Source of the DNA: a virus
Virus genome (UHGV): UHGV-1730239
Direction: 5' to 3' (one strand)
Length of the DNA: 14,195 bases
Of the stretch, positions 4,401 through 14,195 are shown piece after piece. Both the position numbers and the translations under genes were made by a program. The notes below the pieces were generated by a model. It was not told the origin of the DNA. It saw nothing but the letters and a program-made list of their open reading frames with translations, and did not search any database. Position 1 is the stretch's first letter. Every line of letters starts with the position of its first letter.

Positions 4401-6308
4401 ATGAAACTGATTTCGAACAAGGCCAAATTAAAAAAGATTCTTAAAAATGCCGCAAAATATATCACTCCACCGCCTAAACTCCTTCCGTCTGAATGGTGCG
4501 AAGCGAATATGGTGCTGGTAGATGGTCCTCAAGCTGGGGATAAAGTTAAATTGTTGTCATTCCAAAAAGGCATGATTGATGCACCTTTCCTTGAGAACAA
4601 GAAAAAGTATGTCCTGATGACCAGTGCACAGATCGGAAAGACTACCATCCTGAACGGTATCCTGTTTAACCAGATGGCTAACGATCCATGCAATATGATT
4701 ATCGGACAATCAACCGCTAAAGAAATGTCTCAATATCTCGCTGGTAAGATCCGACCGTCTATCGAAGCATGTGATGCATTAAAAGACGTTGTTACAGACA
4801 AGAATGATCGCAATGCGGTTAACAACAATAACCAACTCCAGCTAAAAACGAATCACTTCCTGTACATGGTATCGCTAACCAGTCCATCGACCCTACGTGG
4901 TAAGACCGCAAAGGTTGGATTGCTTGACGAAATCGATGCTGCTACAGCCTCAGAAGAAGGTGATCCGGTGGCACTGGCTGCTAACCGTTTAACTACCTTT
5001 GGCGATGAAGGCCGATTAGTCGTATCCAGTACCCCGACCAGTAAGCTGGGAAGCATTAACCAGCAATGGTTATCAAGCGATATGCGTATGTTTTTTGTTC
5101 CGTGTCCTCATTGCGGTAGACACCAGGTGATCGAGTGGGAAAACGTTCAATTTGAATGGCGTAACATCGATGGTAAGAACTTGCCCGATCCTGATACCGC
5201 TCGTTATATTTGCCCCCACTGTAAGCAATCATGGACAGAAGGGGAACGAATCAGGGCAGTAGCGCAAGGCGAGTGGAGAGCAACCCGTGAAAGTGAAGTA
5301 GCCGGATTCTGGATCAGCCGTTTGTATTCACCTTTCAGCACGATCCGCGCTTGTGTGGTTGATTTTAGCCATGCGTGGCAATCCTTTGATTTACAATCAT
5401 TTTATAACACCGTGTTAGGCAAGGTATACGACGATCAGGACACGGCAGTAGAAGCAAATGAACTGGAACAACTCAAAACAGATGTTTCTATCGAGAATAT
5501 CCCTGATGACGTGATTTTCTTGTGCTCAGGAATTGACCAGCAATTGGACCGCGCAGAATCTACCATCTTAGGTGTAGCGAAAGATAAGGTTTACATTCTG
5601 GATCACCGCAGCTTTTACGATCATAACTGTGAACGATATGAATCACCTGTTTGGGATCGCCTGGTTAACTTCAAGAAAACCAAATTCTATAACGTTAATG
5701 GTGAACGTGTACCAATGCTCGCCAGCTTCCTTGATACATCGAACGGTCGATTCACTCAAGCCGGATACCGTATTTGCGGCAAGTGGAAGAACCTACACGC
5801 GATCAAAGGTAGTTCATCTGGTAATGCTCCAGTGATTCCGGTTAAACCTACCCGCACAGGTGGTCATGAATTGCTTATGCTGGGTGTTAACGTTGGTAAA
5901 TCCGCTGTTCGTGAAATGCTGGTTAGAAACCTGAAAGATAATCCTCATATTGGCTTAGAAATATCAGAAACCGTTCCTGATGATTATCTCGATCAGCTTT
6001 TGAGTGAATCCATCAAGCGTACTACTACTGGCGTGCGTTGGGTGAAAAATCCAGGTAGTACCCGAAACGAGGCTCTCGACTGTCTGGTTTATAGCTATGC
6101 TGCTTCTCGCTACGTCCTTTCAAAAATGTCATGGGATAAACTCATTGCAATGAAAGATAGTTTGAACCGTGAACCAGAAGAATCCGTAGAATCTCCTAAA
6201 TCGCAATCTAACGAGCAAATCGAAGAAACTAAGCCAATCACACGACCGCAACGTCAAAACATCGCCAGACGCCCAAATAGAGGCCGTAGCTGGATAACAT
6301 CGTTCTAA
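4401..6308 (+). CDS. terL: Terminase large subunit, lambda gpA family, 635 aa
   Basis: ATG at 4401 with GAGGG upstream. Walker A-like TSAQIGKTT and Walker B-like GLLDEID; the segments GIDQQLDR and RNEALDC(L)VY match what I recall of lambda gpA (GIDSQLDR, RNEALDCFVY); CxxC pairs (CPHCG, CPHCK). Confidence 0.9.
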
Positions 6309-6885: not shown

Positions 6886-8397
6886 ATGTTTAATCTTTTT
6901 CGACGCAAAAAGGCGGTAGAAACTCCAGTTAAAACTAATCACCGCCAGCAACAACAAAAAATCTTTATCGACAAACAAGTAGAAAAATTCCAGAAAGATT
7001 TGTCTAAGCGTTCTTTGGGCTTAGTCGGTGATCGCATTGATGGACAACTTCAACAAGATACTATCACAGGAACCTTCAATAAGGCTCTCAAATCGAACGG
7101 TAAGCGCCTTTATGATCAGGGTCGTACTCTGGCCTTAAACACTTCCGTAGGCAGTCGCTACACGCAATACATCACCGATATGGTGGTTGGTACTGGTCTA
7201 GATCCGAAGCCGTCAGTTGTTAAATCAAATGGCAAACTTGATAGCGCACTGAATAAGCAGATCGAGAATGCTTTCTGGAAGTGGGCGCAGAATGCTAAAC
7301 GCTTCTCTCGTAACGGTCGCTTTAACTTCCGTGAATTGCTGGTAATGGCTGAACGTGAGCGCGTTATGGGTGGTGAGTGCTTCATAGTTTTAACCAAAGA
7401 AAACAATGAGTTAAATGTTTCTATCCTGTCTGCTGATAAGTGCGACTGGACGCTCAACCGTGAAGTAAGCAAAGAACGCGCTATCTATCAGGGGATCGAG
7501 TATGACGTAGAAACAATGCGCCCTGTTGCATTTTGGTTTCGTAAAATCAACCTACTGACTCAGACTTACACAGGTGATAACTATCGCGTAGATGCTTCGC
7601 AAGTATGCCATTATTATCAACCACTTGCGGCTGAATCTCTGCGTGGTGTGACTGACTTCCTGCCAGTGATCAAGGATATTGCGCATCAAGACGCATTCCG
7701 CGAAACCGCGATCATCCAGAAACGTATTGCAGCTAGCTCTATGGGCTTTATCGAACGTCCGAAAGATTCTGGTGACGATTTTGATACTGGTGAAGAGGAT
7801 GAACAATATCAAGCGCCGGAAGTAGTACAGGATTTTGCACCGGGTACTATTCAGGAATTGCCGGAAGGGGCAACGATTAAATCAATCCAAGCTACTCAAT
7901 CAGGCGATGATTTCAATTCCTTCAATGATGCGATGTTTACTAGCGTATCAATGGGCTTAGGCGTGTTCAAACAGGGCTTAACAGGAGATTGTTCACAAAT
8001 CAACTACTCAGCCGCGCGTTTTGGTGAATTAACTCAACGCACACGAGTTAAAGCACTGCAAAACAAATTGATTGAAACAGTGGTATTGCCAATTTTCGAA
8101 GCGTATCTGCGTCATTATTCCGCGCGTGGCATTGTTCCGATTCGTATTACTGCAATTCCGCATATTATCGACAACACTACTATTATTCGTCCGCGTTTTG
8201 AATCCGTCGATCCTATTAAAGACGTAAACGCTGAAATTGCTTTAATTGATAAAGGACTTAAATCACGTACTGCTGTTATTTTGGAACGTGGCGACGATCC
8301 AGAAAAGGTATTTTCAGAGATCAGGTCTGAATCCAGTGCACTAAATATTATCGTTAATGGTGAGGGTGAAGAAAAAAATTCCCCAGCCGATCCCTAA
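6886..8397 (+). CDS. Portal protein, 503 aa
   Basis: ATG at 6886 with AAGGGG overlapping the upstream stop; portal-typical size and position between terminase and protease/capsid; acidic segment DSGDDFDTGEEDEQY; ends TAA-TAA. Confidence 0.8.
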   Translation: MFNLFRRKKAVETPVKTNHRQQQQKIFIDKQVEKFQKDLSKRSLGLVGDRIDGQLQQDTITGTFNKALKSNGKRLYDQGRTLALNTSVGSRYTQYITDMVVGTGLDPKPSVVKSNGKLDSALNKQIENAFWKWAQNAKRFSRNGRFNFRELLVMAERERVMGGECFIVLTKENNELNVSILSADKCDWTLNREVSKERAIYQGIEYDVETMRPVAFWFRKINLLTQTYTGDNYRVDASQVCHYYQPLAAESLRGVTDFLPVIKDIAHQDAFRETAIIQKRIAASSMGFIERPKDSGDDFDTGEEDEQYQAPEVVQDFAPGTIQELPEGATIKSIQATQSGDDFNSFNDAMFTSVSMGLGVFKQGLTGDCSQINYSAARFGELTQRTRVKALQNKLIETVVLPIFEAYLRHYSARGIVPIRITAIPHIIDNTTIIRPRFESVDPIKDVNAEIALIDKGLKSRTAVILERGDDPEKVFSEIRSESSALNIIVNGEGEEKNSPADP

Positions 8398-8442: not shown

Positions 8443-10446
8443 ATGCTTAAATTTCGCCGCGATCTTAACGGTTACGGTGGAGTTATTAATGAAGGGCATA
8501 ACGATCAATACGAATTTGAAATTGCTTTCTCAAGTACACAGCCTTATCAGCGCCAATTTTGGGATGAGCAAAATCAAGAAATGGTGGTATTAGATGAAAT
8601 TCTGGTACATACACCGGAAGCGGTTGATCTGTCTCGTCTGAATAATAACGCTCCGTTGCTGTTCAATCACAATTTCGATAATCACATTGGTGTAGTTTGT
8701 AACGCTCGAATCGATGCGGATAACGTAGGTCGTGCTCTGGTTAAGTTCTCCAAGCATGGGACTTTGGCTAATGATATTCGTAATAAAGTCATTGAAGGTA
8801 CGATGGAAAAAATTTCGGTCGGCTATGACATTAAAGAGTATCACATCGACTACGCTAAATCGCAACTCATTGTTTCTAAATGGATTCCTCACGAGATTTC
8901 ATGGGTGTCGGTGCCCGCAGACGATACGGTCGGTTTAAATCGCTCTCTAAATACTATCACAGTTAATTTGGAGGCTAAACGCGATATGACTAAAGAACAA
9001 ATCGAAGAAATCAAAGAAGAACAAGAACCCGCTCAGGTTGAAGAAACTCCGGTAGAAGAAAATAAAGAATCGGAAGTAGAAGAAACTCAAGAGCGCCAAG
9101 TTGAAGAGAATGAAGAAAATGAAAATCTCGAAGACGGAAAAGACGCTGAACATCCTGAAAGTGTTGATGATGATAGTTCAACTGTTCGGGAAGCAGAAGA
9201 AGTAAAAGAAGAACGTGAAGCCGCGCCGGTTGAAGAAGAAAAAATCGAAGAAGTGGCTGAACGTTCCGAAGAAGACGAATTAGAAATTCGCGAGATCGCT
9301 CGCGAGCTAAATATTAACGACGAAGAATTAGAACGCGCATTGGCAGTTAAAGACATGACGCCGGAAGCATTCCGCACTAAGGCACTAAATAATCTCGTCA
9401 ATTCTCAACGTAATAACGAACAACAAATTAAGGACTCTAAAATGGAAAAAACTTTTGACCTGAATGCTGTATTTCGCTCTCTGATCGATGGTGACACTCT
9501 GGGTGCTCATGAAGCTGAATATTCCGCGATGGCTGCTACTGCAACTGTACAGCGCGGTCGTGCTGCTCGTAGTGGCTCTGTATTCGTTCCGGCTGCTGCT
9601 CTGCGTGCTGCTGCTGCTGGTAACACTAAAGCTACTCTGGAAGCTGTAACTGATGAAAAACTGCTGACTGAATCCTATGTAGAAATGCTGATGCCTCAGT
9701 CCGTTCTGGGTCGTCTGGGTGTGACTGTCCTGTCTGGCCTGAATAGCCCGATCGCAGTACCAAAAATGACATCTTCTTGTGTTGACGGTTTCGGTTTCGT
9801 TTCGGAGAACGGCGAGGCACCAGAAAATAAAGCAGGTTTCGCAAACGTGAAAATGGCTCCTAAGACTTTCGCAGGGGGCAACCCAATTTCGCGCCTCAGC
9901 CTCAAAACCGTTCCGGGTATCGCAACCCTGATCACTGATCACATGAACAAAGCTGTTCGCATCAAACTGGAACAACTGGTGCTGTCTGATAAAGAAAACG
10001 CTAACGGTCCGAAAGGTCTGATTAAACATCTGGTTGATGCAAGCCGTGTTGAAAAGAAAGCTGCTTTCACCTACAAAGACTTCCTGAAAGAAATCGCAGC
10101 ACTGACTGATGCTGGCGTTCCGGCACAGTCCATCAAATTTGCCATGAGCGGTGCAACTGCTGCTGAACTGGAATCTACCCTGAAAGATAACGGCGTTTCC
10201 GGTTATATCATCGAAAACGGCAAACTGGCTGGTTACGACGTAGTTACTTCTGGTGTTATTCCGGCTGGCCACATCGTTCTGGGTGACTTCTCCGCGATTA
10301 CTATCGGTGAGTGGGGCGGTCTTGAGGTAGATCTGGACGATTCAACCTACCGAGCACAGGGCGCTATCGTTCCGCGTATCTGGGTAGACCTGGACTTCAC
10401 CGTAGTTCAGCCGGAAGCTCTGAAAGTTCTTCATATCTCTGAATGA
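8443..10446 (+). CDS. Single-ORF fusion of prohead protease (HK97 gp4-like), acidic scaffold-like linker and HK97-fold major capsid protein, 667 aa
   Basis: ATG at 8443 with AAAGGTGA upstream. N-terminal ~170 aa carry prohead-protease motifs (LLFNHN..HIGVV, ISVGYD, ISWVSVPADD). Residues ~180-330 are an E/D/K-rich predicted coiled coil. The C-terminal ~335 aa look like an HK97-type capsid protein ending in ...VQPEALKVLHISE. Single TGA stop. Confidence 0.85.
   Translation: MLKFRRDLNGYGGVINEGHNDQYEFEIAFSSTQPYQRQFWDEQNQEMVVLDEILVHTPEAVDLSRLNNNAPLLFNHNFDNHIGVVCNARIDADNVGRALVKFSKHGTLANDIRNKVIEGTMEKISVGYDIKEYHIDYAKSQLIVSKWIPHEISWVSVPADDTVGLNRSLNTITVNLEAKRDMTKEQIEEIKEEQEPAQVEETPVEENKESEVEETQERQVEENEENENLEDGKDAEHPESVDDDSSTVREAEEVKEEREAAPVEEEKIEEVAERSEEDELEIREIARELNINDEELERALAVKDMTPEAFRTKALNNLVNSQRNNEQQIKDSKMEKTFDLNAVFRSLIDGDTLGAHEAEYSAMAATATVQRGRAARSGSVFVPAAALRAAAAGNTKATLEAVTDEKLLTESYVEMLMPQSVLGRLGVTVLSGLNSPIAVPKMTSSCVDGFGFVSENGEAPENKAGFANVKMAPKTFAGGNPISRLSLKTVPGIATLITDHMNKAVRIKLEQLVLSDKENANGPKGLIKHLVDASRVEKKAAFTYKDFLKEIAALTDAGVPAQSIKFAMSGATAAELESTLKDNGVSGYIIENGKLAGYDVVTSGVIPAGHIVLGDFSAITIGEWGGLEVDLDDSTYRAQGAIVPRIWVDLDFTVVQPEALKVLHISE
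9442..10446 (+). CDS. Candidate nested product: major capsid protein alone, from an internal in-frame start (334 aa)
   Basis: In-frame ATG at 9442 with AAGGA 7 nt upstream; from here codon usage switches by eye to the highly-expressed style (ctg, cgt, ggt, gct, tcc). A second in-frame ATG at 8986 has GGAGG 11 nt upstream. Confidence 0.4.
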   Translation: MEKTFDLNAVFRSLIDGDTLGAHEAEYSAMAATATVQRGRAARSGSVFVPAAALRAAAAGNTKATLEAVTDEKLLTESYVEMLMPQSVLGRLGVTVLSGLNSPIAVPKMTSSCVDGFGFVSENGEAPENKAGFANVKMAPKTFAGGNPISRLSLKTVPGIATLITDHMNKAVRIKLEQLVLSDKENANGPKGLIKHLVDASRVEKKAAFTYKDFLKEIAALTDAGVPAQSIKFAMSGATAAELESTLKDNGVSGYIIENGKLAGYDVVTSGVIPAGHIVLGDFSAITIGEWGGLEVDLDDSTYRAQGAIVPRIWVDLDFTVVQPEALKVLHISE

Positions 10447-10575
10447 ACTAACGTAGAACCTTCTGTTCCTTCCCCCGATTTGGGGGAAGAAAATCTGATT
10501 CCTGAACCGGAAGAAGATTCCCAGACGGTTACGGCGAAAGCCACAGTTAAAAAACAACGTAAAACTAAAGAATAA
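10447..10575 (+). other. 42-codon in-frame extension beyond the capsid UGA stop (candidate read-through product), ending TAA-TAA
   Basis: After TGA (10444-10446) the same frame stays open for 42 sense codons (TNVEPSVPSPDLGEENLIPEPEEDSQTVTAKATVKKQRKTKE) to tandem TAA-TAA (10573-10578). An 8-bp hairpin CTTCCCCC-GATTT-GGGGGAAG sits at 10469-10489. Confidence 0.35.
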
Positions 10576-10580
10576 TAATT

Positions 10581-10608
10581 AGCCCTGCCTTAACGGTGGG
10601 GCTTTTTT
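10581..10608 (+). terminator. Rho-independent terminator after the capsid gene and its extension
   Basis: ~9-bp stem (AGCCCTGCC / GGTGGGGCT, two G-U pairs) with 5-nt loop, then TTTTTT (10603-10608). Confidence 0.75.
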
Positions 10609-10638
10609 GTATGTAAATACTCCATAAAGGGGGTAACT

Positions 10639-10929
10639 ATGTTCAAATTATCAGAATCACAATTATCAAGAATGTTTAAAAGTGCTCCTGTATTTTCGGT
10701 GGAAGGTGGTAAATCAATTCGTGCTTACCATGAATTTACTACTACCGACGAACAAGGGGTAATTACAGAATCAGAATTTCTATTCTGTCGTGAGGGAGAC
10801 TTAAATCAGGGTGATGTTGTCATTGTAGACGGTGAACGCTTCAAAGTTCAATACGTTAAGCGCAATGGTGATAATACTTCTGATTGCTTTATTGCTCGTG
10901 CGGGGGGTACACATGCTCGCTACCGTTAA
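10639..10929 (+). CDS. Small virion protein, putative head completion/head-tail connector, 96 aa
   Basis: ATG at 10639 with AAAGGGGG upstream; first gene after the capsid terminator. Function inferred from position only. Confidence 0.5.
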   Translation: MFKLSESQLSRMFKSAPVFSVEGGKSIRAYHEFTTTDEQGVITESEFLFCREGDLNQGDVVIVDGERFKVQYVKRNGDNTSDCFIARAGGTHARYR

Positions 10930-11335
10930 TAACATGCCGAGACTGAAAATCAAACGCGCCTTGCAAGATATTATTGAACAAGATTTAGGTCTGGCTTTAA
11001 ACGTAGAACAAACTCAGCAAGGCTTTAGTGATGATGTGGTTTGTTGGATTATTGGCATGAATGAAACTTACACTAGGGTCCGTGGCGGTAATGCAATGCA
11101 AGCTGAATGTGTTATCGAAATGCAGTTGTATTCTCAGAATCATGAAACCAAAATTCATGAGGGTATTTGCCAGATAATCCAGATTCAGCCGGATAATCCA
11201 CGTTTTAAAGATTTGGGCTTCTCTATTTCAGATATCACTCCAGTAGCTTCTAATACCGATTATGACGATGATTCTAGTGATGGGGGTATCGTTGGGACAC
11301 TTAGCCTTAAATTTTCTTATCTAGCGCGTTTTTAA
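10913..11335 (+). CDS. Small virion protein, putative neck/tail-joining, ~140 aa
   Basis: The listed ORF begins at GTG 10832 inside the previous gene; the first SD-preceded start is ATG 10913 (GGGGGG 5 nt upstream), overlapping the upstream gene by 17 nt. Another in-frame ATG at 10934 lies 4 nt past the upstream stop. Acidic C-terminus. Confidence 0.5.
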   Translation: MLATVNNMPRLKIKRALQDIIEQDLGLALNVEQTQQGFSDDVVCWIIGMNETYTRVRGGNAMQAECVIEMQLYSQNHETKIHEGICQIIQIQPDNPRFKDLGFSISDITPVASNTDYDDDSSDGGIVGTLSLKFSYLARF

Positions 11336-11344
11336 GGGGTAATA

Positions 11345-12181
11345 ATGAATATTACACAAGATAACTTAGACATTTTCACGGGGTCGCATGTTGAATTATC
11401 CATTTCTACGAATATTGATGCTGAACCTAGTTTTTTCGATCCGTCATTCTCTACTGTAGAGAATCTGGCGTCGTTTCCTACCATCTCGTTTAGCAATGAG
11501 ATTGAGACATTGGAAGAATATAATTCTGATGTTACGGCAAAATTACGCGGTGGACGCAAGATCGAAAATACAAACTTGAGTCTCTATCGTGTCATTAACG
11601 ATGAACATCAAGAGCTATTAAATCAGGCTGTACTAAGCAAGCAATTGCTCCGCTTCCGAGTGTTTTATGTGATCGATACTGACCAGAATACAAGCGGTCA
11701 GACGGGCTATTATGTTTTGTATGATGCCTATGTCACTAGCGCCAAAACAAAGGGAAGTGATACCAGCGCGGTTACTGTTGAGTATCGATTAGAACCGGAA
11801 GGAAGTGTGTTGTTAGACGGGATCGCAACTCAAGGGCGCGTCTTGCGGGAGGGTGACTTCGGTATCGGTGCTGGCGTTGGTGTTTTCCCTGGTGTTATTG
11901 ATAGCGAATCTCTATCTGGAAACCGCTTCGTAACGTATAAGGGAACAGTTAGTTCCAACCCGTTCGGTGCTGACACTACAATGATCAGCCTACAGCCTAA
12001 TGAAGATGGTGGATGGCAATTAACTAGCTCGGTAACTGGCAATCCTCGTTTGCGTGTCCGCACTATCCAAAAAGATGGTGCTACCGGATGGTTTAAAGTT
12101 TACACATCGGCTGAAAAACCAACCGCCGCAGATGTTGGGGCAGTGTCGCTAACTGCACGCGTGGACTTTGGCGAGTATTAA
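11345..12181 (+). CDS. Virion structural protein, putative tail tube/adaptor, 278 aa
   Basis: ATG at 11345 with AAGGGG upstream; Gly-rich segment GDFGIGAGVGVFPGV; lies between the small connector-like genes and the tail fibre. No family recognised. Confidence 0.5.
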   Translation: MNITQDNLDIFTGSHVELSISTNIDAEPSFFDPSFSTVENLASFPTISFSNEIETLEEYNSDVTAKLRGGRKIENTNLSLYRVINDEHQELLNQAVLSKQLLRFRVFYVIDTDQNTSGQTGYYVLYDAYVTSAKTKGSDTSAVTVEYRLEPEGSVLLDGIATQGRVLREGDFGIGAGVGVFPGVIDSESLSGNRFVTYKGTVSSNPFGADTTMISLQPNEDGGWQLTSSVTGNPRLRVRTIQKDGATGWFKVYTSAEKPTAADVGAVSLTARVDFGEY

Positions 12182-12209
12182 GGGTGAACCCTAAATAAAA
12201 CATGACGCG

Positions 12210-12240
12210 GGGAGGTTATGCCTCCCTTATTCCTGTTTTA
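12210..12240 (+). terminator. Weak terminator/attenuator hairpin between the 278-aa gene and the tail fibre gene
   Basis: GGGAGG-TTATG-CCTCCC (12210-12226) followed by the U-rich TTATTCCTGTTTTA; the stem also sequesters an SD-like GGGAGG. Confidence 0.35.
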
Positions 12241-12254
12241 TATGAGGTGAATAA

Positions 12255-14195
12255 ATGCAAAGTCTACAGCACAAACGATCCGGTGTTGCTGGTAAAAAAC
12301 CGACGCCGGAACAATTACAGGTCGGTGAATTAGCAATAAACTTAGTCGACCATGTAATTTACACTAAAGATAAAAGCAATGCGGTAGTGCAAATCAGTGT
12401 TTCCCCAGAAAGTCATAATACTTTAAACAAAAAAGTAGACACCAACAAGACGAACACCGATAAAGTTATTGTCGCAAATAAAAAAGAAGCTGCTAATAAT
12501 CTGGCTACCGCTAAAACTGAATTAACTAACACTATCAACACCAAAGACGCCGCAATCAATAAACGTGCTGATGGTATCAATACCGCTGTTTTGAATCTAC
12601 AGAAGATGGTAGCGGCAAATAAAACTGATGCAGATAACAAGATTACTTCTTTAACATCGACTGTCACCGCAAACAACACAGCGATCAATAAAAAAGTTGA
12701 TGCAAACAAGATGCAAGCCGACAAAGAGATCACCCGCTTAGATGGTCGTATCGATGATGCTGTTTTCCGTGGTGAATTGCCAACTGATGCAAATTTAGAT
12801 ACATATGGTCCACTTCCTGAATTTGTCGGTGTATGGGGCAAATCAACGTCTACTAACGCAACTCCGGCTTATAGTTTCCCGGAAGATGGCGCGGTTGGTA
12901 TTCTTGAAGTTTTCTCCGCTGGTAACTTTGCGGCAACTCAGCGTTATACGACGCGCTACGGTAATATTTTTGTTCGTAACCTTTCCGCTAAATGGAATGG
13001 CTCTAATGGTCCGTGGACGCCGTGGCGTAATATTCAGATGGGTACTCGTCCGCTTTCGACGTCAATTAATCTTAATGATTTTGGCGGTGTTGAGCATTTT
13101 GGCTTATGGCGAAACGGGTCTACATCAATTGCGTCGTTAGATCGAAACTTCCCAGAAGCAGGGGCAGACGGTCGAGGATTGTTAGAAGTTTTTGAAGGTG
13201 GTAGTTATTCCCGTATGCAGCGTTACACAACCATTAACGGTCGTGTGTATATTCGTACTCTCGCCGCTTCGTGGGATGCATCCGCGCCGAGATGGGAAGC
13301 GTGGAAAAAGGTTGGTCTTTTTACCCCGTCTGAAATTGGCACATACAATAAAGCGGAAATTGATAAGAAAATTTCTGATTTGGACAATGCGCTAGTATCT
13401 AAACCGATCCAGCCGTTACCGGACGTATGGATACCGTTTAATGATTCTCTGGATATGATCACAGGATTTGCGCCGGGATATAAAAAAATTACTGTTGGTG
13501 CGGATGTTGTCACTATGCCTAGTGACAAGATTGTTAGCTTTACTCGTGCATCAACCGCTACATATATTAATAAATCTGGTAGGCTTAGTGTCGCTGCAAT
13601 TGATGAACCACGATTTGAAAAAAATGGTTTATTGATTGAAGGCCAACGAACTAACTATTTTGTTAAATCTAACACCCCTGCCGAATGGACTAGCACAAGC
13701 AATATTGATAAAAGCAATAATGGCGTTGATGAATTTGGTTTTTCATTTGCAAAAATGAAAACTAAGGAAAATATGACGGGTCAATCATCCGCTCTTAGTT
13801 TGCATACATGCAGCGCATCCCGTGGTGTTGATGTTAGTGGTGATAATAAGTTTTGCACAGTTTCTTGTCGTGTTAAGGCTCCTGATGGCCTCCGTTGCCG
13901 TTTACGCTTTGAAAAATACGATGGATCGGTTTACACCTTTTTGGGTGATGCTTATTTGACTTTCGGTAGCACATTGACAATAGAAAAAACTGGTGGTGCT
14001 GCTAATCGTATTACGGCTAACGCTACTAAAGATCCGGTTACTGGTTGGATTTTTTACGAAGCGACGATAGAAGCGGTTGAAGGGGAAACCTTGATTGGTG
14101 CAATGATTCAGTATGCACCGAAAAAAGGCGGTGTAACCGAAGCAGGGGATTATATCTATCTTGCCACACCACAATTCGAAAATGGTAGTTGTGCG
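12255..14195 (+). CDS. Tail fibre protein, 3'-partial (at least 647 aa, continues past the window end)
   Basis: ATG at 12255 with GAGGTGA upstream; the frame is open to the last base and is absent from the ORF track only because no stop falls in the window. Contains an N/K/T/A-rich coiled-coil-like shaft (~12400-12760) and two ~48-aa repeats with motif LEVF...QRYTT..G..(F/Y)(V/I)R.L.A.W....W..W resembling the knob domain of pyocin/phage tail fibres. Confidence 0.75.
   Translation, partial: MQSLQHKRSGVAGKKPTPEQLQVGELAINLVDHVIYTKDKSNAVVQISVSPESHNTLNKKVDTNKTNTDKVIVANKKEAANNLATAKTELTNTINTKDAAINKRADGINTAVLNLQKMVAANKTDADNKITSLTSTVTANNTAINKKVDANKMQADKEITRLDGRIDDAVFRGELPTDANLDTYGPLPEFVGVWGKSTSTNATPAYSFPEDGAVGILEVFSAGNFAATQRYTTRYGNIFVRNLSAKWNGSNGPWTPWRNIQMGTRPLSTSINLNDFGGVEHFGLWRNGSTSIASLDRNFPEAGADGRGLLEVFEGGSYSRMQRYTTINGRVYIRTLAASWDASAPRWEAWKKVGLFTPSEIGTYNKAEIDKKISDLDNALVSKPIQPLPDVWIPFNDSLDMITGFAPGYKKITVGADVVTMPSDKIVSFTRASTATYINKSGRLSVAAIDEPRFEKNGLLIEGQRTNYFVKSNTPAEWTSTSNIDKSNNGVDEFGFSFAKMKTKENMTGQSSALSLHTCSASRGVDVSGDNKFCTVSCRVKAPDGLRCRLRFEKYDGSVYTFLGDAYLTFGSTLTIEKTGGAANRITANATKDPVTGWIFYEATIEAVEGETLIGAMIQYAPKKGGVTEAGDYIYLATPQFENGSCA

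Follow-up and report, generated by a model that had tools for sequence, protein, structure and literature searches.

Why should a large tail fibre gene lie only three genes away from the capsid gene? The question is raised by the virus genome UHGV-1730239, from which a stretch of 14,195 nt (hereafter the window) was analysed, the piece studied being 10,639-14,195 and the gene order being read on the plus strand. An earlier note on this DNA had remarked that three genes, of 96, 140 and 278 aa, are all that separates the capsid gene and the transcription terminator behind it from the fibre gene, with no tape-measure or sheath gene in between. It had offered three readings of this layout: a rearranged gene order, a short-tailed virion, or a capsid-forming element relying on tail parts encoded elsewhere. 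The layout itself is confirmed by the open reading frames (ORFs) and by Pfam and PHROG searches, which found no tape-measure or sheath homologue between the capsid and fibre genes, and the large gene is indeed a tail fibre gene (phrog_1419, 1e-130; phrog_1699, 2.9e-20). The explanation that fits best, and that we consider probable, is an ordinary long-tailed prophage with a two-piece side fibre anchored by a duplicate of its tail tube protein.

The prophage and its tail genes

Positions 8443-14195 of the window are 100% identical to a prophage of Escherichia coli O6:H16 2014EL-1346-6. This prophage is an insert of about 36 kb that splits hicB, the antitoxin gene of the hicAB toxin-antitoxin pair. 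The two halves of hicB bound it (7389-7697 and 43497-43613 in L010, the locus that carries it), and a large serine recombinase is encoded at one end.

Beyond the fibre genes, the prophage encodes a 156-aa tail tube protein, assembly chaperones, a tape measure, a distal tail protein (DTP), a hub and a J-like tip (Table 1). No sheath family was matched among the ORFs scanned, in the window and among the downstream tail genes. Since the whole set from tube to tip is present and a sheath is not, the tail is, as read from its genes, long and non-contractile, that is, of the siphovirus type.

A tube domain and a gp36-type tail in one protein

The 278-aa protein divides into three parts. Its first 164 residues form a domain paralogous to the prophage's own tube protein: the 278-aa and 156-aa proteins are 24% identical over 149 aa (E-value 3e-11) and have a DIFTGS N-terminus in common. 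In the structural model, residues 13-164 have a predicted local distance difference test score (pLDDT) of 80-90, and the domain shows the beta-sandwich plus helix of the tail-tube fold. It scores 12.1 against the tube protein of NF5, 11.3 against that of R4C, 11.1 against T5 p140 and 10.3 against the tube protein of the Rhodobacter capsulatus gene transfer agent (RcGTA). Among sequence families, phrog_158 is reached at 2e-4 only, and the 278-aa profile searched against PDB sequences gave nothing significant.

The middle part begins with a stretch that is disordered in the model (residues 165-211, pLDDT below 50); beyond it, values of 52-65 are found. Linker and small beta domain together (residues 165-245) make up a unit that recurs four to eight times in many long fibre proteins. 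This middle part is weakly similar to the collar spike of phage XM1 (E-value 0.28).

The third part resembles one half of a known fibre joint. In T4, the distal hinge connector gp36 joins the proximal end of gp37, and the gp37 gene of T4-like phages comes immediately behind that of gp36. An end-to-end alignment with gp36 of phage JSE pairs the 33 C-terminal residues of both proteins, those of the 278-aa protein being ATGWFKVYTSAEKPTAADVGAVSLTARVDFGEY, at 48% identity and a pairwise E-value of 7e-7. The C-terminal motif (I/V/L)D(F/Y)Gx(Y/F)-COOH is common to the 278-aa protein and to gp36 of T4, RCIP0052 and fHyAci03, the endings being ...VDFGEY in the 278-aa protein, ...QDFGYY in T4 and ...IDFGTF in JSE. 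When the 278-aa family was compared with T4 gp36 by hhalign, only the KPxAAD motif was aligned; the clear likeness came with the C-terminus of the JSE type. The Pfam domain Phage_T4_gp36 was not matched in the 278-aa protein.

A likeness to the other half of the joint is found at the start of the 821-aa fibre protein, which reads MQSLQHKRSGVAGKKPTPEQ... and which matched 1149 phage records by tblastn, T4 itself at 44.7% identity (E-value 3e-6). Among 40 of these records that were sampled, the match lay in T4-like genomes, mostly under the name of long-tail-fibre distal subunit. The 278-aa gene stands directly 5' of this gp37-type fibre gene, with the adjacency and order of T4 g36-g37. From the gp36-like tail, the gp37-like N-terminus and this adjacency, we infer that the two genes reproduce the g36-g37 pair and that their products bind to each other. 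Judging by these likenesses, T4-like myophages and temperate siphophages have exchanged parts of their fibre joints. Further along the fibre, two internal repeats are found at about residues 213-262 and 306-357, and a C-terminal concanavalin A-like lectin domain lies beyond the window (Laminin_G_3, 29.3 bits).

Relatives of the fibre cassette

The gene order from capsid to fibre recurs in all related loci that span the region. These loci come from eight assembly contigs, three complete E. coli genomes, about 30 of 37 IMG/VR contigs and three other genera. The order kept is 96-aa gene, tail terminator gene, 278-aa gene, fibre gene with a conserved N-terminus, a variable 3.4-4.5 kb, and then the tube, chaperone and tape-measure genes. 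The tail terminator is 97-99% identical across loci. Allele classes that vary together are seen in three sequences, with identities of 100% or about 62% in the 278-aa protein, 100% or about 72% at the start of the fibre and 100% or 60-76% in the tube protein. Host range is determined by the cassette that lies between the terminator and tube genes, the variable block of the prophage.

The distal part of this block takes another form in strain KSC64, where it consists of one 1173-aa fibre and three Gly-rich proteins of about 100 aa each. The latter are tandem paralogues (MxxWV...IPNGW...; L012 21381-22287) that replace the 92-aa and 394-aa genes, and no family was matched by them. The KSC64 variant is also inserted elsewhere, in ycdX instead of hicB (L012 2078-2482).

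An exhaustive hidden Markov model search with the 278-aa family returned 325 clusters. Most of the 150 clusters listed are proteins of 600-1500 aa that carry the module in their first 240 residues or so, and some of these long relatives, in Serratia and Leclercia, are named tail fibre proteins. Certain of them end in a Peptidase_S74 chaperone, which argues that they are one-piece fibres, and others in a gp36-like tail; one longer member of the family (P0096) matches Phage_T4_gp36 at 28.8 bits, above the cut-off of 26. Matches of 150-165 aa in the same search are plain tube proteins.

Between their terminator and tube genes, prophages of Pseudocitrobacter, Phytobacter and Rouxiella have a single fibre of 971-1018 aa (the ORF sizes are those of L055 and L057, and the three loci come from a contig scan with a single degenerate pattern). 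The first 140 residues or so of these one-piece fibres are 33-40% identical to the 156-aa tube protein (E-values 1e-23 to 1e-29), so that their N-domains are almost as close to it as are those prophages' own tube proteins. Because one-piece fibres with a tube N-domain occupy the same slot among relatives, the ancestral layout of the group was apparently a fibre fused to a second, tandem copy of the tube gene. In the prophage of the window, the fibre looks to have been split in two at a gp36/gp37-type joint.

Among phages proper, relatives are scarce. A megablast of positions 8443-14195 against 50,697 phage records gave as sole match a 240-nt fibre segment common to T5-like phages, and tblastn of the 278-aa protein and of the N-domain of a one-piece relative against phage records found Escherichia phage DCP80 only. 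DCP80 (PQ671644.1, L001 1-23000) is the one phage-database record with a head, neck and fibre module of this type. It is filed as a 141-kb T4-like Gaprivervirus, yet its first 23 kb or so are a siphovirus-type structural module running from the terminase to a 1252-aa tip, after which come the T4-like genes motA, rIIA and endonuclease VII. By its appearance, the record is a chimera made in assembly or includes an induced prophage that was assembled along with it. As it is the sole match among phage records and apparently chimeric, no cultured phage with micrographs is available for the group.

How the fibre may be anchored

We propose that the tube gene was duplicated in tandem and that one copy became the anchor, which would explain why the fibre genes lie between the terminator and tube genes. 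The side fibre would then consist of two pieces, of which the 278-aa protein is the proximal one and serves as anchor. The tube domain of this protein would form a ring of the tail, stacked with those of the ordinary tube protein, at the top, at the bottom or scattered among them, while its flexible linker and C-terminal tail would point outward. The 821-aa distal piece, which bears the receptor-binding domains, would dock on this tail through the gp36/gp37-type joint.

The roles of the two tube-fold proteins might also be reversed: the 278-aa protein would be the major tube protein with a C-terminal decoration, like lambda gpV or Sf11 gp24, the 156-aa protein would form a minor ring, and the fibre would be attached elsewhere, for instance at the J-like tip. 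We regard this as unlikely. Homologues of the 278-aa module are the N-termini of fibres of 600-1500 aa; with relatives of up to 1400 aa, a module of this type is hardly to be expected at about 180 copies per tail. The C-terminus of the 278-aa protein is a fibre joint motif and not an immunoglobulin (Ig)-like decoration. The abundant tube subunit is more probably the 156-aa protein, since it passes the curated Pfam cut-off for tube proteins and since its gene immediately precedes those of the chaperones and tape measure and has, like the capsid gene, a strong hairpin behind it. Indeed, the best plus-strand hairpin/T-run sites of the structural operon lie after the capsid gene, after the 278-aa gene, where the site is weak, and after the 156-aa tube gene, where it is strong, at L010 22139-22161, 23767-23785 and 28288-28307, the third being beyond the window; the hairpin of the tube gene is similar in form to that of the capsid gene.

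Alternatively, the 821-aa protein could be a head fibre, which would account for its adjacency to the head genes. In some genomes it bears the Prokaryotic Genome Annotation Pipeline (PGAP) name 'phage head spike fiber domain-containing protein', and NF048003 (GTA_spike_fiber) does match its residues 460-661 with 62.4 bits, against a cut-off of 36; the head and tail modules are, moreover, distantly like those of RcGTA and R4C. However, the match is confined to an internal, probably sugar-binding domain. The RcGTA fibre binds its pentameric base via an N-terminal Ile/Leu-Gly repeat, IALGLGLGL (PMC7296036); the GTA_spike_fiber domain is shared with the RcGTA head spike fibre and this repeat is not, the N-terminus being of the gp37 type. 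The partner encoded upstream has a tube fold, and no head-spike-base family was matched in Pfam, PHROG and NCBIfam scans of the proteins studied here. The head-fibre reading suggested by the PGAP name was rejected on these grounds, and we consider it very improbable.

Least credible of all is a short-tailed virion, or a capsid-forming satellite with borrowed tail parts: the window alone shows no tube, tape-measure or sheath gene, but it does encode a tail terminator, a protein that caps long tails; a full set of siphovirus tail genes, in the same operon orientation, follows no more than 3.6 kb after the 278-aa gene, and such a set lies downstream in every related locus long enough. Of the readings in the earlier note, only the rearranged gene order survives. 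The short tail and the dependence on tail parts from elsewhere are both contradicted by the tube, tape measure and tail terminator that the 36-kb prophage encodes and by the normal tail gene set found immediately downstream of the fibre genes. The 278-aa protein, with its tube-fold N-domain, gp36-type C-terminal joint and gp37-type neighbour, is best taken as a fibre adaptor or proximal piece. A downstream tail set and a fibre adaptor are the two findings that the earlier note had itself given as refutations. Proximity of a fibre gene to the capsid gene is, in this group of prophages, no sign of a short tail or of a satellite.

Several points weigh against a side fibre anchored by a tube-protein duplicate. 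A hexameric ring with six C-termini would have to accommodate trimeric fibres, which is a symmetry mismatch. No particle has been seen, and that the 278-aa protein forms a ring, in how many copies and at which place, is deduced. This protein stays below the Pfam cut-offs for tube proteins (Phage_tail_2, 19.7 bits against 23.8), and its C-terminal half is modelled at low confidence. The likeness to gp36 covers 33 residues, and hhalign against T4 gp36 itself gives a probability of 8%. Finally, the attachment of the 394-aa Peptidase_S74 fibre and of the 92-aa protein is left unexplained.

A broader claim would be that, in a group of siphovirus prophages of Enterobacterales, side fibres are built on a tube-protein duplicate incorporated into the tube, some members, this one included, splitting the fibre at a gp36/gp37-type joint. 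For this claim we hold the balance to be even. If it is true, fibres would be anchored to a non-contractile tail in a way distinct from the T5 collar, from the J-bound Stf of lambda and from the Dit platforms of Gram-positive phages. The 278-aa 'hypothetical protein' and its relatives of 600-1500 aa can be annotated as tube-domain-anchored fibre proteins.

Comparison with known fibre anchors

That a ring of tube fold can hold side fibres is a known principle, exemplified by T5 p140/p132, the Dit of Gram-positive phages and monocin FtbK. In T5, p140 is a duplicate of the tube protein that forms one ring and, together with p132, anchors the L-shaped fibres (pb1) (PMC10038345). The likeness to the present case lies in a tube-protein duplicate dedicated to fibre anchoring. 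In T5, however, the duplicate bears no decoration and the fibre is held by another protein, the Ig-like dodecamer p132, whereas in the prophage the tube domain is covalently continuous with the proximal part of the fibre; no p132-like or Ig-like protein was matched among the cassette proteins. Besides, the T5 anchor genes lie among the baseplate genes, and the prophage anchor gene between the terminator and tube genes.

FtbK of the monocins is a ring of tube fold holding side fibres (PMC11830787). Like the Dit/DTP of Gram-positive siphophages, it has a galectin domain and makes up the one DTP ring, which is placed at the tip of the tail. The prophage, by contrast, has a separate DTP of its own, of 186 aa, and the 278-aa protein resembles tube proteins more closely than it does DTPs.

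A third comparison is with decorated tubes. Lambda gpV with its C-terminal Ig domain, SPP1 gp17.1* and Sf11 gp24 likewise consist of a tube domain followed by a flexible C-terminal domain that points outward. Yet these proteins are the major tube subunit or a frameshift variant of it, and their additional domains are adhesin-like Ig or fibronectin type III domains. In the prophage, the gene is a separate paralogue and the tube domain is extended by a fibre joint; relatives have a whole fibre in its place, which may reach about 1400 aa.

With the long tail fibre of T4, two sequence patterns are shared: the C-terminal ...KPTxA(D/E)VGAV...(I/V)DFGx(Y/F)-COOH of the upstream protein, common to gp36 and the 278-aa protein, and the N-terminal F(K/L)RSxxAGxxP...GELAINxxD of the downstream one, common to gp37 and the 821-aa fibre along with gene adjacency and order. 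The T4 fibres hang from the baseplate of a contractile tail via gp34/gp35, whereas in the prophage the gp36-like tail is borne by a tube-fold domain and the virus is a siphovirus.

As for gene order, much is shared with lambda: the gpA-type terminase, the lambda-family portal, the gene in the W position, the terminator, the tube, the G/T chaperones, the tape measure and the J-like tip. With R4C and related phages the prophage shares the protease-capsid fusion and the set of hub, DUF6950 protein and tip. Here, however, the fibre cassette lies between the terminator and tube genes and not after the tip gene.

The prophage therefore differs from known anchors in the covalent continuity of tube domain and fibre, in the T4-type joint and in the position of the genes. 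In the literature searched for tube-paralogue fibre anchors we found only T5, the monocin and general reviews, and did not find this arrangement described. According to the T5 structural study, fibre anchoring must differ in other siphophages (PMC10038345), and the module described here is a testable candidate for such an alternative.

Head, neck and neighbouring features

The features of the window and of the tail genes beyond it are collected in Table 1.

Table 1. Features of the window and of the downstream tail genes, in gene order (positions are those of the window unless L010 is named)
Feature	Position	Strand	Remarks
Rha-type regulator		+	first in window gene order
gpA-type large terminase	4401-6308	+	
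164-aa protein in lambda W position		+	PHROG 'head-tail joining'
Lambda-family portal	6886-8397	+	
Prohead protease (S78)-linker-HK97-fold major capsid fusion, 667 aa	8443-10446	+	Phage_capsid 1.3e-26, Peptidase_S78 1.7e-9, phrog_617 3.4e-88
Candidate read-through extension of capsid gene	10447-10572	+	42 sense codons (TNVEPSVPSPDLGEENLIPEPEEDSQTVTAKATVKKQRKTKE) in capsid frame after TGA; then TAATAA, 10573-10578
Intrinsic terminator-like hairpin and T-run 3' of capsid gene	10581-10609 (hairpin 10581-10603)	+	9-bp G+C-rich stem
96-aa head-tail connector candidate (lambda FII-like stopper)	10639-10929	+	Phage_attach 24.3 bits, cut-off 26; position between capsid and terminator genes
140-aa tail terminator protein (lambda gpU / T5 p142 / RcGTA g8 class)	10913-11335	+	
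278-aa gene	11345-12181	+	
278-aa protein, residues 1-164	11345-11836	+	tail-tube-fold domain, paralogue of own 156-aa tube protein
278-aa protein, residues 165-245	11837-12079	+	Gly-rich flexible linker (GDFGIGAG...) and small beta domain, fold uncertain
278-aa protein, residues 246-278 and stop	12080-12181	+	gp36-type C-terminal joint (...KVYTSAEKPTAADVGAVSLTARVDFGEY-COOH)
Weaker hairpin between 278-aa and fibre genes	12209-12227	+	8-bp stem, poor T-run
Fibre gene	ATG 12255, still open at 14195 (L010 23813-26278)	+	647 of 821 codons in window; full fibre 821 aa
Fibre, residues 1-47	12255-12395	+	T4 gp37-type N-terminal joint motif; phrog_1699 long-tail-fibre distal subunit 2.9e-20
Fibre, residues 48-647 of 821	12396-14195	+	Asn/Thr/Lys-rich shaft and start of receptor-binding region (GTA_spike_fiber-type domain, residues 460-661); phrog_1419 tail protein 1.1e-130
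92-aa protein after 821-aa fibre gene			phrog_1361, unknown function
394-aa second fibre			coiled coil and Peptidase_S74 chaperone
156-aa tail tube protein			Phage_TTP_11 31.5 bits (cut-off 28.4), phrog_158 4e-21
102-aa assembly chaperone			phrog_344 5.5e-9
103-aa T-like protein			Phage_tail_T, weak
ORFs of the 102-aa and 103-aa proteins (G/T-like chaperones)	L010 28362-28670 and 28730-29041		
809-aa tape measure			phrog_13674 8.7e-67
186-aa DTP			phrog_1302 1.2e-17
217-aa hub			hub N-domain, weak
DUF6950 protein			between hub and tip in gene listing
1249-aa J-like tip			Phage_Tail_Tip / Ig_GpJ_C

The 140-aa protein has the gpU-like alpha/beta fold of tail terminators, and we assign it to them; its profile gave nothing significant against PDB sequences. 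The 96-aa protein, for which no PDB sequence match was found, is a weak candidate for an FII-like connector. An NCBIfam scan of the 96-, 140- and 278-aa proteins returned nothing, and a PDB sequence search with the 164-aa protein in the W position gave nothing significant. If the ATG at 10913 is used, the genes of the 96-aa and 140-aa proteins overlap by 17 nt (10913-10929); a start at ATG 10934 would give 133 aa and no overlap. Among homologues, the segment from the first ATG to the second is variable, except for an invariant initial Met and an invariant Asn7. A nearly identical ribosome-binding site, AAAGGGGTAA(C/T)(T/A)ATG, is common to the 96-aa, 278-aa and 156-aa genes.

The hairpin behind the capsid gene folds at -17.2 kcal/mol (z -3.2), a value equalled by none of 200 shuffles. 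Just ahead of it, the end of the capsid gene (10444-10578) has an unusual form: a TGA-A stop is followed by an open frame that ends in TAATAA. In all 39 related loci, TGA-A is followed by 28-45 in-frame codons and then by TAATAA, and 19 variants of the peptide are found. Insertions and deletions within the extension are multiples of 3, and indels of 1 nt are found immediately downstream of it. The extension has neither a start codon nor a Shine-Dalgarno sequence. The peptide has an acidic part followed by a basic tail, in some cases with an AT-hook-like GRP. The in-frame indel pattern and the conserved TGA-A and TAATAA suggest a candidate for programmed UGA read-through, which would yield a minor, C-terminally extended form of the capsid protein.

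In the annotation of the 36-kb prophage there are no recognisable repressor or replication genes, and an IS1 lies within the lysis region of the source-strain prophage. An Rfam scan of the window gave no match. This holds also for a gene-poor stretch of about 1.25 kb (366-1611) with some 35% G+C, in which no ORF exceeds 64 aa. Inside it, eight copies of (A/C/G)CCTACAC(T/A) lie on the same strand within 120 bp (918-1038). The whole window contains 10 matches to this pattern, against 2.0 expected, a number that none of 200 shuffles attains. The repeats at 918-1038 form an iteron-like array, which is possibly an origin or the binding site of a regulator.

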